Positions 9,828 to 37,246 of a DNA stretch of 64,000 nucleotides are shown in pieces. Source of the DNA: Chloropicon primus. Its lineage: Eukaryota. A program made the position numbers and the translations under genes. Below the pieces are notes generated by a model, which saw only the letters and a program-made list of their open reading frames with translations, was not told the origin of the DNA and ran no database searches. Each line of letters starts with the position of its first letter. Positions within the stretch are counted from its first letter, which is position 1. The DNA lies in assembly GCA_023205875.1 (NCBI GenBank), contig CP060762.1:558001-622000 (forward strand), in the 5' to 3' direction.

Positions 9828-9885
9828 ATGAAAAAAGTGCAATCCACTGGGATCAAAACATTGGTGAATCACCCCTTCACTCACG

Positions 9886-9910
9886 GAGAGAGAGAGAGAG
9901 AGAGAGAGAG
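9886..9910. repeat. (GA)n microsatellite
   Basis: Read directly from the sequence. Confidence 0.9.
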
Positions 9911-10151
9911 TTCCACCCAATCATCCGCTTCCTTCTGCTGTCCCCCCCCTCCCTGCCGTCCTCGTTTGGCATACCCCCTGCTGCTGAAAACGGATGATTG
10001 ATGGGACCCCTCCCCCCCTCCTGCCCCCTTCTGGGTGCCACCCTGGCCTTTGACTCCTCGTGATTGATTGGGACACATTGGGGTCCCTCCATCCCCTCCC
10101 TCCATCCCCTCCCCTCCATCCCCTCCCCTCCATCCCCGCTGCGCTGGTAAG

Positions 10152-10607
10152 ATGTCGATTGTGTTGCACTCCGAACGACGGCGCGCCTTGTCGTCGTTTC
10201 ATTCGAACGCTGCGGAGTCGCCTTCCGTGTGTAGCGGTCGGAGCGACTATACTTTGACGGTTGAGCCGTGTCCTCACGGGACTTTTGTTGCGTTGGTGAC
10301 GTCCGTGTCCCTGCTCGCACACATCCTCGGCGCTTCTCTCTGCTGGTGGCACCCTGCCGTTTCCCACGTGGCGTTTGGCGTGAGCGTTTTCCTCCACCTC
10401 GTCCTGAACGCGTACAATTTTTCTCTGCGGACTCAAGATGCGCGGTTTTCGTTTCTTCTGTCCTCTTGCTTACTTTTGAGTATGGTTTCATTCATGATTT
10501 GCGCGTTGACTTCTACAGGCGCGACTGTTTCCATCGTGTTTCATATACTTTTGATCATGCTGAACATGGTTCTTTTGATACATAATCCTAATGAGTACGT
10601 CCAATAG
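10152..10607 (+). CDS. Hypothetical membrane protein with ~4 TM segments
   Basis: 151-aa ATG-initiated ORF with four hydrophobic stretches. Confidence 0.45.
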   Translation: MSIVLHSERRRALSSFHSNAAESPSVCSGRSDYTLTVEPCPHGTFVALVTSVSLLAHILGASLCWWHPAVSHVAFGVSVFLHLVLNAYNFSLRTQDARFSFLLSSCLLLSMVSFMICALTSTGATVSIVFHILLIMLNMVLLIHNPNEYVQ

Positions 10608-10786
10608 AGTGGAGACAGCCGCAGGGTCCTGAAGACGGATACGACGTCACCGTCCTTGGCAGCACTTGCATCTTCTTCCTCTGTCACGGCCAAGGTCGAA
10701 AATTTCGTACTACGACGACCGCGGTTTCGCGCTCCTTCACCACCGCTCCATTCGACGGACATTGCTAATGGCCTGTTTCGGATGCT

Positions 10787-11005
10787 TTATATACGTTCTC
10801 TCAATTGCTTTTGGGCCGATTCCATGCACAACGCGAACGTGACTTTGTTGTGTTTATACTTGGTTCTCGACAGTATAAAATCGAGGTAAGGGTGTTCATC
10901 CATGATGAAGCGTCCCAAGGGGTCATCGGGGACATGATACACAAGCCAATCGACGAGGTCTTCGTCCCGCACGATCTTCACGATTTCATCAAAAGGAGTC
11001 GACAT
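10787..11005 (-). CDS. Small hypothetical protein (72 aa)
   Basis: ATG-initiated ORF with protein-like composition inside the island; no recognised family. Confidence 0.35.
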   Translation of the reverse strand: MSTPFDEIVKIVRDEDLVDWLVYHVPDDPLGRFIMDEHPYLDFILSRTKYKHNKVTFALCMESAQKQLRERI

Positions 11006-11507
11006 CGCTCAATTGAATGGATCAGAAAGAGAAACGAAACAAACGATACAATTCATCTTACAGAAACAAACGGGGGGCCCATCCGGTCAGTCACGCGCCC
11101 GTTGTCGCCGAGTCGCCTCGATTGTACGGATGCGCCATGAGGTGAGCGCGCTTAGCACTGACGATGCAACCACGCAGAGCGCAAGTACCCGCGTTTCGAT
11201 GGATAAACCTTCAAGGTGCTCGAAAACGAAGTCGTAAGGCGAGTGGTCGACTGCTGATATTCCTTCAATGACTTGAGGGGGCTGAATGATGTTGTGTCCT
11301 TCATTCTCCGCCGAAAAGAATGGTGTTTCTTCGAGGACTTTCATTGTTGCATTGATGTAGTACAGTGTGCACGTCAAATGATAATGTGGGTGAAAACAAA
11401 CACGGAGGTAAAAACTGTCCCGGTTTTAAAAAAATCGTCATTTTTTTGTTTTCTGCAGCGCACCGCCGCTTCGCAATGGCCGCATCACCGCGTTCGAGGT
11501 GCGCGTC

Positions 11508-14500
11508 ATGGCGTCGGACGCGCCGCCGAGCAAACGCCGCCGTGTCGACGACTACGACGTGCCGTCTCCGATCGGCGCGTCCAAGGCCGAGACACGTCAC
11601 GTCGCGCATGTGGCGCAGCTGTTGTTTGAGAACGGCTTGCTTGAGCAGGGCGTGACCGGGCGCTCGCTCGCGAAGCACCTGACGGAAGGCAAGACCCACC
11701 ACAACACCGATGCGTTCTTCAAGCTCACGAATGGCACGGAAGTGCTGTTCGAGTACGACCCGGGCTTCACGCACGGCGACTCCGACGTGGGACGCGACCA
11801 ACGCAAGACGACCAAGCTCCGCGAAATGTTCCCTGACGCGTTCGTGGTCCGCTTGCGCGTGGGCGCCGCACACTTCGAGCAGCTTTCGCAGTGGGGGGAC
11901 AACGTGCTCGTCGTCGTCACCGAGTCGCAATTACCGAACGTTGCCGCGTCAGCTGCTGTGACCGCCGTCGCGCAGCGCATCCATCAAGGCGGTGCTGCAG
12001 CGACCAAGGCGTGCCCGAGCAGCAACCATGACAACGCCGCCGCCAACGATGCCGCCGCGGACGTGTGGGCGCGCATGAGCAAGGAGTTTGAAGCCGCCGA
12101 GCAGCGCGTCGCGACGCTCGTGGGTGGTGATCTCGACCTGGCGCGAAAGCTCATGGCCACCCCCGGAGTGCCTTCGCGTGTCCTGACGGGAGCCTTCGAG
12201 AAAAGCATCAAAGGGTTGCAAGATCCCAAGTTCGGCATAACCAACTTGGGCACGTTTGTCTGCGGCGGCGTCGCTGCAAAGTTCGACGATCCGGAGAAAC
12301 TCTTTGACATCCTCACGGCGCTCAAGACGCGCTTCGGCATCAAGAGTCTCCAGACCTTTGTTTCAGACAGCGTTGCGGCGAGGTTTGACGATCCCGACGC
12401 GCTCTACGCCGTGCTCGACACTTTGAGGACGCGCTTCGGCATCAAGAGTCTCCAAACCTTTGTTTCAGACAGCGTTGCGGCGAGGTTTGACGATCCCGCA
12501 GCGCTCTACGCCGTGCTCGACACTTTGAGGACGCGCTTCGGCATCAAGAGTCTCCAAACCTTTGTTTCAGACAGCGTTGCGGCGAGGTTTGACGATCCCG
12601 CAGCGCTCTACGCCGTGCTCGACACTTTGAGGACGCGCTTCGGCATCAAGAGTCTCCAAACCTTTGTTTCAGACAGCGTTGCGGCGAGGTTTGACGATCC
12701 CGCAGCGCTCTACGCCGTGCTCGACACTTTGAGGACGCGCTTCGGCATCAAGAGTCTCCAAACCTTTGTTTCAGACAGCGTTGCGGCGAGGTTTGACGAT
12801 CCCGCAGCGCTCTACGCCGTGCTCGACACTTTGAGGACGCGCTTCGGCATCAAGAGTCTCCAAACCTTTGTTTCAGGAGGCGTTGCGGCGAAGTTTGACG
12901 ATCCCGACGCGCTCTACGCCGTGCTCGACACGCTGAGGACGCGCTTCGGTATCAAGAGTCTCCAGACCTTCGTTTGTGGTGGCGTTGCGGCGAAGTTTGA
13001 CGATCCCGACGCGCTCTACGCCGTGCTCGACACGCTGAGGACGCGCTTCGGCATCAAGAGTCTCCAGACCTTCGTTTGTGACAGCGTTGCGGCGAAGTTT
13101 GACGATCCCGACGCGCTCTACGCCGTGCTCAACACTTTGAGGACGCGCTTCGGCATCAAGAGTCTCCAGACCTTCGTTTGTGATGGCGTTGCGGCGAAGT
13201 TTGACGATCCCGACGCGCTCTACGCCGTGCTCGACACGCTGAGGACGCGCTTCGGTATCAAGAGTCTCCAGACCTTCGTTTGTGGTGGCGTTGCGGCGAG
13301 GTTTGACGATCCCGACGCGCTCTACGCCGTGCTCGACACGCTGAGGACGCGCTTCGGTATCAAGAGTCTCCAGACCTTCGTTTGTGGTGGCGTTGCGGCG
13401 AGGTCTGACGATCCCGACGCGCTCTACGCCGTGCTCGACACGCTGAGGACGCGCTTCGGTATCAAGAGTCTCCAGACCTTCGTTTGTGGTGGCGTTGCGG
13501 CGAAGTTTGACGATCCCGACGCGCTCTACGCCGTGCTCGACACGCTGAGGACGCGCTTCGGTATCAAGAGTCTCCAGACCTTCGTTTGTGATGGCGTTGC
13601 GGCGAAGTTTGACGATCCCGACGCGCTCTACGCCGTGCTCGACACTTTGAGGACGCGCTTCGGTATCAAGAGTCTCCAGACCTTCGTTTGTGGTGGCGTT
13701 GCGGCGAGGTTTGACGATCCCGAGGCACTCTACGCCGTGCTCGACACTTTGAGGACACGCTTCGGCATCAAGAGTCTCCAGACCTTTGTTTCAGACAGCG
13801 TTGCGGCGAGGTTTGACGATCCCGCAGCGCTCTACGCCGTGCTCGATACTTTGAGGACGCGCTTCGGCATCAAGAGTCTCCAGACCTTTGTTTCAGACAG
13901 CGTTGCGGCGAGGTTTGACGATCCCGCAGCGCTCTACGCCGTGCTGGACACTTTGAGGACGCGCTTTGGCATCAAGAGTCTCCAAACCTTTGTTTCAGGA
14001 GGCGTTGCGGCGAGGTTTGACGATCCCGCAGCGCTCTACGCCGTGCTGGACACTTTGAGGACGCGCTTCGGTATCACCTTTGTGAATAACAGCGTTGCGG
14101 CGAAGTTCGACGATCCCGACGCGCTCTACGCCGTGCTCGACACGCTGAGGACGCGCTTCGGTATCAAGAATCTCCAGACCTTTGTTTGCAATAGCGTTGC
14201 GGCGAAGTTCGACGATCCCGAGGCACTTTACGCCGTGCTTGAAGAGCTCGAGCAGATGGTCGGCAAAGGCGGCGTGCTGATAGCGGGTTCGAACGCCTTC
14301 GCGTCGCGCATGTTGAAGCCTGGGTTTGTGGACGCGGTAGTCGCATGCGGGGACGCTCTGTCGGTCCTGGGATTGGATCCCGTCAAAGAGTTGCGGACCG
14401 TGTTAAACAAGGAGAACGCGAAGTTGATGAACATGATCGGCACGCTCGCCGCCAAGCTGAAGGCGTGCAGCGACGAGGGCGCAGCGCACCAGCTGCTTGT

Positions 14501-14558
14501 TTCGCTGCGGAACAAGAAAAGGAAACACGAGGCCATGATTGCCATGATTGATGCATGA
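11508..14558 (+). CDS. Vsr/DUF559-like endonuclease fused to a 20 x 34-aa TALE-like repeat array
   Basis: NLS PPSKRRR; S-x-x-E...D...EYDPGFTH...RDQRKT..L...VVRLR nuclease-type motif; 102-bp tandem repeats; C-terminal RNKKRKH. Confidence 0.8.
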   Translation: MASDAPPSKRRRVDDYDVPSPIGASKAETRHVAHVAQLLFENGLLEQGVTGRSLAKHLTEGKTHHNTDAFFKLTNGTEVLFEYDPGFTHGDSDVGRDQRKTTKLREMFPDAFVVRLRVGAAHFEQLSQWGDNVLVVVTESQLPNVAASAAVTAVAQRIHQGGAAATKACPSSNHDNAAANDAAADVWARMSKEFEAAEQRVATLVGGDLDLARKLMATPGVPSRVLTGAFEKSIKGLQDPKFGITNLGTFVCGGVAAKFDDPEKLFDILTALKTRFGIKSLQTFVSDSVAARFDDPDALYAVLDTLRTRFGIKSLQTFVSDSVAARFDDPAALYAVLDTLRTRFGIKSLQTFVSDSVAARFDDPAALYAVLDTLRTRFGIKSLQTFVSDSVAARFDDPAALYAVLDTLRTRFGIKSLQTFVSDSVAARFDDPAALYAVLDTLRTRFGIKSLQTFVSGGVAAKFDDPDALYAVLDTLRTRFGIKSLQTFVCGGVAAKFDDPDALYAVLDTLRTRFGIKSLQTFVCDSVAAKFDDPDALYAVLNTLRTRFGIKSLQTFVCDGVAAKFDDPDALYAVLDTLRTRFGIKSLQTFVCGGVAARFDDPDALYAVLDTLRTRFGIKSLQTFVCGGVAARSDDPDALYAVLDTLRTRFGIKSLQTFVCGGVAAKFDDPDALYAVLDTLRTRFGIKSLQTFVCDGVAAKFDDPDALYAVLDTLRTRFGIKSLQTFVCGGVAARFDDPEALYAVLDTLRTRFGIKSLQTFVSDSVAARFDDPAALYAVLDTLRTRFGIKSLQTFVSDSVAARFDDPAALYAVLDTLRTRFGIKSLQTFVSGGVAARFDDPAALYAVLDTLRTRFGITFVNNSVAAKFDDPDALYAVLDTLRTRFGIKNLQTFVCNSVAAKFDDPEALYAVLEELEQMVGKGGVLIAGSNAFASRMLKPGFVDAVVACGDALSVLGLDPVKELRTVLNKENAKLMNMIGTLAAKLKACSDEGAAHQLLVSLRNKKRKHEAMIAMIDA
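12246..14273 (+). repeat. Coding tandem array of 20 x 102-bp units (one with a 12-bp deletion)
   Basis: Consensus LQTFV-xxx-VAA[R/K]FDDP[D/A/E]ALYAVLDTLRTRFGIKS. Variable triplets start at 12261, 12363, 12465 and so on up to 14187. Confidence 0.97.
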
Positions 14559-15433
14559 CACCCCCCTCTTCTGGTGTTTGGAAGCCCTGGAGGGGGCGTG
14601 TTATTCGTGAGTTGCTTGAGGAATGGGTCGCACTCGCTCTCTCACCCTCATTTGATGCCCGCTCACGCACATACATAGGCGGATGGGATTCGTCCTTACG
14701 CATTTTGGCAATGTTTGACATGCCCGACCATCTTGAGAAGATGGTCAAGGTTGGCGTCTCGTATGCGTTGGAAGCCGCCCACGAAAGCGTGGACCGTTGC
14801 AGCTACGACTGCCTTCGTGTGCTGTTGAAGTTCGGTAATATTGAGCTCGACTCCGGTCTCGATGGGGACGATGAGTGGACGCTTGTTCTGAGGGCTGTCA
14901 TCAACGATCACCCCAACTGTCTTCGAATTCTTCTTGAACATGGCGCTGATCCGAACGTCCAAATTGACGGTTTATCCCCTATTCACGAAGCTGCGGAGAG
15001 GGGCCACGTCGAGTGTCTTCGTTTGCTCGTCGCTTACGGTGCCGAAAAGGACTCTCTCTTGGAGAGTGGTGACATGACCCCTCTGCAATTCTGCGTCCGC
15101 GGCGGCCATATCGAATGCTTGCGTTTTCTGCTTGACGTCGGAGCGTCGCCGGACATTGCGAACGTGGACGGCACCACACCCATTATTTATGCGGCTGCGG
15201 AGAACCAAGTCGAGTGCTTGCGCATGCTTCTCGAGTCCGGTGCGGACAAGGACAGGGCAAACGGCGCAGGTTTGACGCCCGTGCAGCATGCTCGAGATCA
15301 TGGTCATGCCAGGTGCCTCAAGCTTTTGCTTGAGGCCGGAGCAACGCTGCCGGGGGCCCTAACGGGGGCCCTGACGGCCCCCGAACCCCCACGCTTGCAG
15401 CGGGGGTTGGAAGGGGGCTTGCCCCCTCCGTGA
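14555..15433 (+). CDS. Ankyrin-repeat protein (~5-6 repeats)
   Basis: SPIHEAAERGHVECLRLLVAYGA, TPLQFCVRGGHIECLRFLLDVGA, TPIIYAAAENQVECLRMLLESGA. True start may be a later Met. Confidence 0.85.
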   Translation: MTPPSSGVWKPWRGRVIRELLEEWVALALSPSFDARSRTYIGGWDSSLRILAMFDMPDHLEKMVKVGVSYALEAAHESVDRCSYDCLRVLLKFGNIELDSGLDGDDEWTLVLRAVINDHPNCLRILLEHGADPNVQIDGLSPIHEAAERGHVECLRLLVAYGAEKDSLLESGDMTPLQFCVRGGHIECLRFLLDVGASPDIANVDGTTPIIYAAAENQVECLRMLLESGADKDRANGAGLTPVQHARDHGHARCLKLLLEAGATLPGALTGALTAPEPPRLQRGLEGGLPPP

Positions 15434-15586
15434 GTGGAAAAGCTTCCCCGAGCCCCCACGCATTGAACTGCGCTACGAGTCAGTTTGTGTCGTGTGGCTC
15501 TTTCGTAAACCGTACAAACCCACGGGAGACTCGTTCAAAATGCGTCTAACCCTAATTAGCCCCCCGGCGCCGGCGCCGGCAGCACG

Positions 15587-16769: not shown

Positions 16770-17053
16770 GTAGACATCGCCGTTGGCCTCTGACCTGGCC
16801 TCTGGGGCTGACGTGGATGACGAGCATTACTATTAATACAAGGGAGGCTCGAGACACGACGAGGCAGACGACTCAAAGCCGGGACAGACAAGGCCAGCGG
16901 GGGAAAACAAACGAAAGAGAGCACACAGAGCGAAGCTACGTCTCGCGGGCTTTCGAGCGGTGGGTCGCTTGTGTTGTGCGTCGTCCTGTGGAGTGCGTAA
17001 GGTCACCGGCAAGTCCGAGGGTTTTTCTTCTTTGGGACACTCAGAGTGGGATC

Positions 17054-29978: not shown

Positions 29979-30735
29979 GTTCACGCTTGTGTCCCGCCGT
30001 CTCTTGTGCTCCCTCCTCCTCCCTTGATAGTTCAAGCTCTCCTCCTGTCTAGGGCCTCTCTCACTTGGTCAAGTCAAGTGACCTACAATTCCAACGCCAA
30101 GGAAAGGAAAGGGTCCACCACCTTTGCTGCCACACTAGCGACGCGTCTCACCCTCTCTTGGCCATAAAACTCCAAACCTCTCCTCGCTCTACACACCAAG
30201 CCCTTCTGTCTGGACACACAAACCCAAAGCAGAGACCAAGTTAGGTGACTGTCCAAGAGACCGTCAAGAGACCGAGAGAAGGCTGTTGTCCATGGAGAGA
30301 CAGGTCCCAAGACCAGGACCAAGATGAATCTTTGGCCCCTTCCTTCCTCTCCACCTCGATCTTGTTCGCACAAACCTCCCTCCTGTGTGACTTACCTCGA
30401 GAGCCAGAGCTTGAGCTCCTCTCCACCTTGTCCTTGGGATGAGCAGCACGTGAGAGGGGGGTCGTGTCACTGATGGAGGGAATGGCGTACGAGGGAGGAC
30501 TGAGGACGGAGGACTGAGGAGGTTGCGAAACATCGCGAAAGTGCGTCTCGAGATCTTTCCATCGGTGTGTCACTTGACCCCATCGCGTGGTCCTTTGTCT
30601 TGAAATCCATCCTGGGAAAGGGGAGTGCTGACAGACAGAGATGGAGGAGGAAGCAAGCGAGGAGAGAGAGAGAGAGAGAGAGAGGGGTGAGAGGGGATGA
30701 AGGAAGGGTTGGAGTGCTGAAGGAGGGAGGCAGAG

Positions 30736-35453: not shown

Positions 35454-37246
35454 TCACTGCAGCTGGTAGACGCAGCGCTGCTGCCTCCTATTTCCTGCCG
35501 CCAGTGTCCTGGTGTGCAAGCGGTGCAGCAGCATTGGAATCGGATTACCGGCCCTGAGGTCGTAGGACTCGAAATTTGGTGTCATATAAAACATTCCCGC
35601 AACACACTCGCCGTGAATCACCTCGAGCGTGTCCAAGTGCTGCGGCTCCGCTGCATCCCCCTTGCTTTCCCCTTGGAGCATGTCTCTTCTCACCCCTCCC
35701 TTGCTGATCAGGAAGTTGACCCTGTCCCTAAACTTCTTTCCGCTCCTGCGTAGTGCTCTCCTCCATCTCGGCAACTTTTGCCTCCACTTGATGCCAGAGA
35801 ACCCATTCGAAACGTAGCCCAAACCCAAGAGGGGGTAGTTTCGGTGACTCAAGAGGGACTCGTCGCTCGCTTCGAAGACGGAGGCGTTGAGCAGAGGCTT
35901 TCCCATGTTCGTCATCCCGAATGTGCCAAGCTGAATGCTGGTCCTCTTGCCGTACTTGTCCGGTGGCGCTACGACCATCAGGTCCACCGCGTCTTCCTGC
36001 CCTAGCAGCTCCGAGGACAACGACTGCGGAACGGAGCCAAAAGAAGCGAACCTCCCAAGGTTGAAGACGTCATATTCTCGCGGGATCATCGACTCGTGAC
36101 CACCATCCGGCTTCTGAAAATCGAAGACGAACTCCGCCCCGACCCTTACGTACTCTTTCTGGCACCTCAGCAAGTGCTTTCTCACTCCTCGGACCGCCGC
36201 GATGCAGGCGTCCTGGGCCTTCACCAAAGCAGGCATCTTCCAGCCAGTGCCGCTGGTTTGCTCCATGTCGACTGTGCCATGCTTCGGCTCATGGAACAAG
36301 ACTCTTGGCAGCGGTATTCCAAACAAACCCTCGTATAGAACGTCTGAACCCTCCAGCTTCTCGAAGGCTTCCTTGAGCACCGCTTCGGCGCTCCCGCCCT
36401 TTTTCCCTCCCAGAGCGTCAATGATGCTCCTCTTCCACTCCCTGTAGGCAATGGGCTTGGTCGTGGTCGCGCACACCGCCAGACCAAGGTCTCCGGCGTG
36501 GTCCAGGACGTAGTCCTTGGGCCCCGTGGCCCCTCCAGAGCCCGCGTTGTAGAGGGCAGTGGGGTTGCACTTCCCCCGCCCGAACTCTTTGCTAATTTCT
36601 CGTGACGTCGCTTCCGGATCGCACCACAGCGCCACCGACACGCACCCGTCCTTGAACAAGTTTGCTCCCACGCACTCCCTCCGCTTTCCCTTGCTGGTGC
36701 GCTGGAGAACCCTCTTGGACATTTCATCACTGCTCCAAGCAGCTTCGTCCTCCGTCGTGCTCATGGACGTGAACGAGCCCAGACCGCCGCCCTTCTTCCC
36801 GATGGATGACTTCCCGAGGAGTGCCTCCTCGAACGTCGCATCCTCCTCCGTCCCGCCGAACCAATCCGTCCACAGGAGGTCCTCGGCGCTCAGCTGCGAG
36901 CTGCAAAACAAAACAAAACAAAAACAAAACAAAACAAAAACGTTCTTTAGTTCAGTTTCCTTCCATGCACGCTTCACCGAAAGAGAGAGCCGAGTCGTAA
37001 CGTGTCGTGAAGATTCCCCTCGTCCAACGAAGCGTCCCGCAGCTCCGCTTCCCTCCCTCCCACTCCCTCTGCAACTCAACCTTACCTGTACAAGGACCTC
37101 GTGTCCCAGAGGTCTTCCTGCTCGGCAGTCATCGTCTCCGTCGTGTCAAACCTTGCAATGTTGGTACCATTCGAATGAAAAACATCTTGTGAGTGTTGTG
37201 CCATCCCTTCCGCCTCGCTTCGTCCCTCCTCGCCCGCCGTAGCCAT
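35454..37246 (-). CDS. Hypothetical protein; 2 exons (intron ~37085-36901)
   Basis: Long ORF joined in frame to an upstream ATG exon through GTAAGG...TTTTGCAG. Confidence 0.7.

Follow-up and report, generated by a model that had tools for sequence, protein, structure and literature searches.

An intact ORF of the alga Chloropicon primus appears to encode a naturally occurring, TALEN-like nuclease of the homing type that came from a virus, with a Vsr/EDxHD-type head joined to a TALE-related repeat array; we give this reading of the sequence a probability of about 0.6. The ORF lies in the window, that is the whole stretch of 64,000 nt of contig CP060762.1 analysed here, which consists of compact green-algal-type nuclear DNA and carries, among the 28 ORFs scanned, genes for the plastid division protein ARC6, MCM, Sec6 and the gamma-tubulin complex. 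The ORF and its parts are organised as follows:

11508..14558, + strand: intact, intron-less ORF of 1016 aa with a nuclease-like head, a 20-repeat array and a C-terminal cap
11532..11543, + strand: basic motif, putatively NLS-like (aa 9-12)
11568..11990, + strand: predicted nuclease head of the Vsr/EDxHD type (PD-(D/E)xK superfamily), with E28, D68, H89, D97 and K100 conserved
11991..12230, + strand: helical linker between head and array, common across the family
12231..14258, + strand: 20 repeats forming an array with a 102-nt period; all but one are of 34 aa, the other being of 30 aa, and three helical segments are predicted in each
12261..14195, + strand: triplets of the variable loop, at columns 11-13 of the repeat, with column 12 equivalent to TALE residue 13
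12435..12842, + strand: units 3-6, four DNA-identical repeats, a recent expansion
14259..14558, + strand: C-terminal cap, also present in close homologs

A second basic, putatively NLS-like motif is found at aa 1003-1006 of the 1016-aa protein, and no activation domain was recognised in the cap (14259..14558). The lone 30-aa repeat begins at 14067. A previous sequence-only reading had described the middle residue of the loop triplets as a string of G, D and N, with S, C or N before it and G or S after it. This description is accurate: the string is correct, and in the same order, at 20/20 positions, G occurring eight times, D ten times and N twice, and the flanking residues are as claimed. It should be noted that in the window array alone columns 11, 13, 17 (K/R) and 22 (A/D/E) are about as variable as column 12, which is singled out by the family data only. 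As repeats 3-6 are identical at the DNA level, the run of five D repeats results in part from a recent tandem expansion, and its length could reflect an assembly choice. Repeat 12 (window 13353-13454) shows an F-to-S change at an otherwise invariant position, which may be a sequencing error or the mark of a damaged repeat. Pfam matches on the array (DUF4113, YAcAr and others) were rejected as repeat-summed noise; no stretch passes.

A search with the whole window protein retrieved 14 homologs, and a metagenome scan identified 33 family loci. With a profile, 560 representatives were obtained at E<=0.001, the best 150 of which were listed; this profile spans the head and the cap, so that not all 560 need carry repeats. 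Tandem repeats, scored with the three loop columns masked, were detected in 113 of the 153 proteins examined, with periods of 32-40 aa across the family. After exclusion of P0052, a false member, the middle residue was D, N, G or S in 450/463 repeats (D 170, N 143, G 123, S 14). Over 53 proteins, the variable column differs in 0.68 of the within-protein repeat pairs, compared to 0.03-0.35 at the other 33 columns; for proteins taken singly, it ranks first among the core columns in just 19/30. The mis-registered P0048 was left out of the seed and of part of the column statistics. The residue that follows is more often S after N than after D or G (nominal p 5e-5, the repeats not being independent), a preference that hints at a fourth letter. 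Close relatives built on the same scaffold display different strings and different repeat numbers. In P0001, a eukaryotic-proteome relative with 91% identity, the string differs and the protein is predicted to be fused to amine-oxidase and to a sequence resembling a Ulp1-type protease; this suggests a different context of insertion. At L002:11580-11620, on a 208 kb contig of 31% GC, a frameshift within a G run interrupts the array, due either to an assembly error or to decay.

No published description of this family was found in the literature searched, outside which most subscription journals lie. The passages of PMC11417379 covered mention neither viruses nor algae nor Tribonema, and its supplement might list members among untested repeat clusters. 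The TALE-related repeat nucleases of giant viruses are a large family that is apparently undescribed.

In TALE repeats, residue 13 reads the base, D corresponding to C, G to T and N to G or A. The sequence-only reading had likened the variable residue of the window array to this position, and the likeness holds: in family members with full-length loops it is in register with residue 13 of TALE and BurrH, and the D/N/G/S alphabet recurs on very different scaffolds. A long-loop subfamily (P0058, P0075, P0084, P0116, P0132, P0176 and P0178) has loops of TALE length with Bat-like residue pairs. The head of P0058 is of the same type as that of the window protein (28% over 438 aa, E 6e-26). The whole-sequence E-values of the TALE matches, which are inflated by the repeats and overstate homology, reach 2.2e-26 for dTale2, the sole PDB match of P0058 (2.1e-10 for the best stretch; the variable residue falls on TALE position 13), and 2e-17 to 1e-8 for the 26 TALE/BurrH chains among the 31 PDB matches of an 8-protein long-loop profile, the other 5 standing at E>=0.41. 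In several members the loop is longer by one residue and N precedes the variable residue, and the loops of P0177 read N-I, N-N, N-D and N-G.

The link to the window protein is less direct. No match to the window protein was found among the PDB sequences, and no TALE match there with profiles A2 and A3 (short-loop members) or with P0121 and P0177, the latter being without any PDB match. One short-loop member weakly matches PthXo1 (E 0.0019), and the Pfam TAL_effector family appears below threshold in 2/102 members and is absent from P0058. A single-repeat HMM built from 8 short-loop homologs gave 33.6 bits for the window repeat (300 permuted controls at or below 1.6) and 41.6 bits for the long-loop P0084, and only 1.2 and 1.9 bits for P0058 and P0132, respectively. 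With the long-loop HMM, seven short-loop proteins scored 11-23 bits and the window repeat -1.0 bits. Since the long-loop model misses the window repeat and the short-loop model misses P0058 and P0132, TALE homology is a chain through intermediates. By this indirect chain of sequence matches, the window repeats are credible distant relatives of TALE repeats.

In the part of PMC4787788 available, Val7, Gly14 and Leu29 are given as conserved in TALE-like repeats. In the window repeats, position 7 is never Val, whichever register is taken, whereas Gly14 is present in 10/20 (Ser in the rest) and Leu29 in 19/19 full repeats; because the motif is incomplete, we term the window protein TALE-related and not a TALE-like member. 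The TALE-like repeat length of about 33-35 aa is shared by 19/20 window repeats, which are of 34 aa. A hypervariable residue at TALE position 13 is found in the family, the register for the window repeats being carried over from the long-loop members.

Regarding the head, its residue order fits that of the EDxHD homing endonucleases, whose catalytic residues are E, D, H and D in the accessible part of PMC3239194. D68, D97, K100 and R115 are invariant in 46/46 heads and E28 is present in 42/46; E82, D84 and H89 belonged to the pattern by which the 46 heads were selected, and the conservation of H89 in 46/46 is therefore by selection. The head has a feature score of 0.92 to the DUF559 and PvuRts1I clusters, and its model aligns at modest Z to PD-(D/E)xK nucleases, among them I-Bth0305I and Vsr. 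It is thus predicted, from sequence and model, to be a Vsr/EDxHD-type nuclease with its catalytic residues kept. A head of this type is carried by 38 of the 113 repeat-bearing proteins. In 21 others a second, unrelated head of about 250 aa with invariant D, G and H is found (for example L034:7355-10828, with an array of 23 repeats, L007:1-2973, L029:4795-6234, P0012, P0017, P0018 and P0021), and 55 have neither, only 9 of these having at least 150 residues ahead of the array. By its motifs, the second head is reminiscent of the uracil-DNA glycosylase superfamily. It is left unnamed here because it has no match in Pfam or PDB.

The code, transferred literally, predicts a 20-mer target that the sequence-only reading had compared to the CT-rich intergenic DNA of the host. 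This likeness is only compositional. Within the window, the best match is a single 17/20 site at 35656; a score of 17 or higher was obtained on the same DNA with 120/500 permuted repeat orders, and 17 was also reached in 5-7 of 60 Markov shuffles. The predicted site is not present as an exact copy in a viral contig collection, which yielded one family member only, and no empty-site joint of the inserted segment was detected at the two flanks in 8 runs. The co-variation of triplet strings with flanking DNA that might have been expected did not appear either: among 24 possible codes compared to the flanks of 15 loci, the best summed excess was 3.6 and the two TALE-type codes gave 0.0 and 0.5, and the GC content of predicted targets was not correlated to that of the flanks in 17 locus groups (rho 0.17, p 0.51). 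Strings shared among 25 arrays showed no excess, 89/200 shuffles reaching the observed value. These target tests do not refute the code, as the carrier of a nuclease should lack an intact site and most loci are short. It is nevertheless very unlikely that the literal 20-mer is a target in the host genome.

The dinucleotide composition sets the gene apart from its surroundings:

10149..14558, no strand: segment of foreign dinucleotide composition, CpG obs/exp 1.33-1.42 compared to 0.76-0.93 in ten host genes; ends approximate
14555..15433, + strand: adjoining ankyrin-repeat ORF of intermediate CpG (1.08), possibly part of the insert

The ends of 10149..14558 showed neither terminal repeats nor a duplicated target site. 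Two small ORFs in the CpG-rich segment (10149-10607 and 10769-11140) are without Pfam match, and no relatives of the ORFs neighbouring the window gene were present in the fetched family loci. A C/T-rich 14-nt tandem repeat (10084-10137, 3.9 copies) lies at the left edge of the segment and a G/C-rich hairpin-like stretch (15350-15465) around the end of the ankyrin ORF. A dispersed short repeat common to intergenic regions occurs at 16924-16961, 50472-50503 and 30535-30576, and other copies of it appear as loose ends in two runs.

In the fetched loci, 75 of whose 126 ORFs were scanned, the neighbours of the homologs encode ribonucleotide reductase, thymidylate synthase, Erv1, UvdE, HSP70 and heliorhodopsin, a set which we take to be giant-virus gene content. 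The family is found in giant-virus-like contigs and in protist genomes: P0019 is named from a Megaviridae sample, other members come from Tribonema minus and a choanoflagellate, and 5 viral proteins match the model at E<=0.001. Viral proteins among the structural matches are G9E3N9, G8DF05, G3GN92, V5LMS5 and A0A5J6VK61. Four matches in bacterial and archaeal genomes (scanned with one pattern) and three viral single-motif matches were attributed to chance; the phage and plasmid searches gave two weak, unrelated matches only, and no related locus was confirmed in the viral contigs. The algal copy was likely, judging from these sequence features, acquired from a giant virus in a segment of about 4.4 kb. 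The nuclease head and the giant-virus origin are both absent from the sequence-only reading, and the sequence holds more in this respect than had been claimed.

We propose that the array would wind along double-stranded DNA with one repeat per base pair. That each repeat reads one base is, on the sequence data, quite probable. Column 12 would read the base, with D reading C, G reading T and N reading a purine, and the residue after N (G or S) may separate G from A; by analogy with TALEs, these letter assignments are slightly favoured. Bound to a long specific site, the array would position the head so that it nicks or cuts close to the site's 5' end. In giant viruses the protein would most likely act as a free-standing, homing-type selfish nuclease, retargeted through shuffling or exchange of repeats, and the algal copy would be a captured passenger or possibly a defence gene. 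Since this copy was likely transferred from a virus, its target site need not lie in the host genome.

The predicted fold calls for a different reading to be weighed, that of an mTERF-like solenoid without one-to-one code, which would bind nucleic acid by shape or backbone and whose D/N/G/S alphabet would come from helix capping and gene conversion between repeats. The structural model (aa 21-479, 102-sequence alignment, pLDDT 91.5; a single-sequence model of pLDDT 52 was not used) is a three-helix repeat solenoid, as in mTERF. Of the nine best structural matches, three are TALE/BurrH chains and the other six are repeat chains of the mTERF type or of mitoribosomal proteins. The model repeats align to mTERF3/4/1 at Z 11.3-9.9, to TALE 4hpz at Z 9.4 (rmsd 4.2, 253 aligned) and to BurrH at Z 9.1 (rmsd 4.3, 257 aligned; TALE/BurrH rmsd range 4.2-5.4); mTERF stands slightly above TALE, and Z values of 9-11 are also reached by generic helical repeats. 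With Foldseek against PDB, the top row was a TALE at E 0.067 and nothing was found at E<=0.001. D, N, G and S are typical helix-cap residues and the variable residue opens the second helix in the model, so that helix capping is a real alternative source of its alphabet. Weak Atlas leads to mTERF clusters (0.76-0.77), the movement of loop codons in linked blocks within the window array and the uniformly negative target tests point the same way. However, capping does not explain why the variable column differs within arrays twice as often as any other, nor why the same alphabet follows N at TALE position 12 in the long-loop members, nor the N-I loop of P0177; D and G are moreover each encoded by more than one codon and occur on both repeat backgrounds of the window array. 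The mTERF family PF02536 had no match in the window protein and was absent among the 25 of 120 families listed for the 102 members. We regard a code-free solenoid as unlikely. Still less probable, and by a wide measure, is an RNA-binding helical-repeat protein with a RAP-like endonuclease head and PPR/OPR-like logic: weak PDB sequence matches to RAP-domain proteins (E 0.15-0.18) and the presence of FASTKD4 and mitoribosomal chains among the structural matches would agree with it, but the only significant sequence links are to the DNA-binding TALE and BurrH, and the protein has NLS-like motifs with no organellar leader noted.

A further possibility keeps the TALE-like reading and changes the role: viruses would direct the protein against the DNA of hosts or rival viruses, and the alga would retain its copy as an antiviral nuclease. 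An intact ORF with NLS-like motifs would be expected of such a gene, and the second, unrelated head that replaces the nuclease in part of the family, like the absence of host matches beyond chance in the window, is compatible with it. Two studies of seawater metagenomes contain near-identical pieces. A contig from a run guessed as RNA begins 139 nt upstream of the ATG (9859-11060 being uncovered), which is a weak hint that the algal gene is expressed. Yet the predicted site has no exact match in the viral contigs, a collection poor in this family, the arrays have no strings in common, and a recent passenger insertion would look identical. A conflict role is thus rather unlikely, and the homing-type nuclease remains the preferred reading.

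Compared to TALEs and TALE-like proteins (dHax3, PthXo1, BurrH/Bat1, MOrTL and STAR; PMC4787788 and PMC11417379, in the parts available), the window family likewise consists of helical repeats in tandem, each about 34 aa long and with a single hypervariable residue drawn from the same alphabet; its long-loop members are in register with residues 12-13, and in both groups arrays are reshuffled between close relatives. MOrTL repeats have been placed in a Bat1 scaffold (PMC4787788). By contrast, the loop is one residue shorter than in TALEs in most family members, the window protein included, residue 14 is G or S, the second helix has an extra break and the repeat length varies from 32 to 40. The family is also naturally fused to a nuclease or to the second head, has no activation domain, and is found in giant viruses and protists and not in the bacterial genomes scanned (with one pattern only). 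Engineered TALENs are fusions of TALE and FokI. Like them, the window protein is predicted to join a programmable array to a nuclease; here the fusion is natural and the head is N-terminal and of the Vsr type.

The fold of the head is like that of I-Bth0305I (PDB 3r3p; Z 6.1, rmsd 3.5, 93 aligned; accessible part of PMC3239194) and of Vsr (Z 5.8, rmsd 3.5, 99 aligned). With the EDxHD endonucleases it shares the E, D, H, D order, and viral hosts occur in both; it differs from the homing enzymes in that the nuclease is N-terminal in the window protein and C-terminal in theirs, a TALE-related array takes the place of NUMOD/HTH motifs as the reader, and the gene is without intron or intein, with no target or empty allele found. 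A predicted solenoid of three-helix repeats is shared with mTERF/pTERF (PDB 3n6s and 3m66; PMC11417379 in part), to which the structural Z is highest (11.3; rmsd 4.6, 229 aligned); no sequence link was found, and near-identical repeats, a single hypervariable column and the nuclease head distinguish the window protein.

In the literature covered, and within the parts of it available, TALE-like proteins are described from a few bacterial groups and one fungal-assembly protein, none with a nuclease. We tentatively entertain, at a little under even odds, the broader view that hundreds of natural TALENs exist in giant viruses and in the protists they infect, reading DNA at one base per repeat by essentially the TALE code and carrying interchangeable DNA-attacking heads; they would form a eukaryotic-virus branch of the TALE superfamily that bridges the TALE and mTERF folds and of which one member was captured by the alga. 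The origin of TALE repeats would become accessible to tests with a large and diverse family of this kind, connected to TALEs through its long-loop members and intermediate in fold between TALE and mTERF. If true, these proteins would represent a class of homing nucleases retargeted by repeat shuffling, and would add numerous scaffolds of 32-40 aa to those available for programmable DNA binding.
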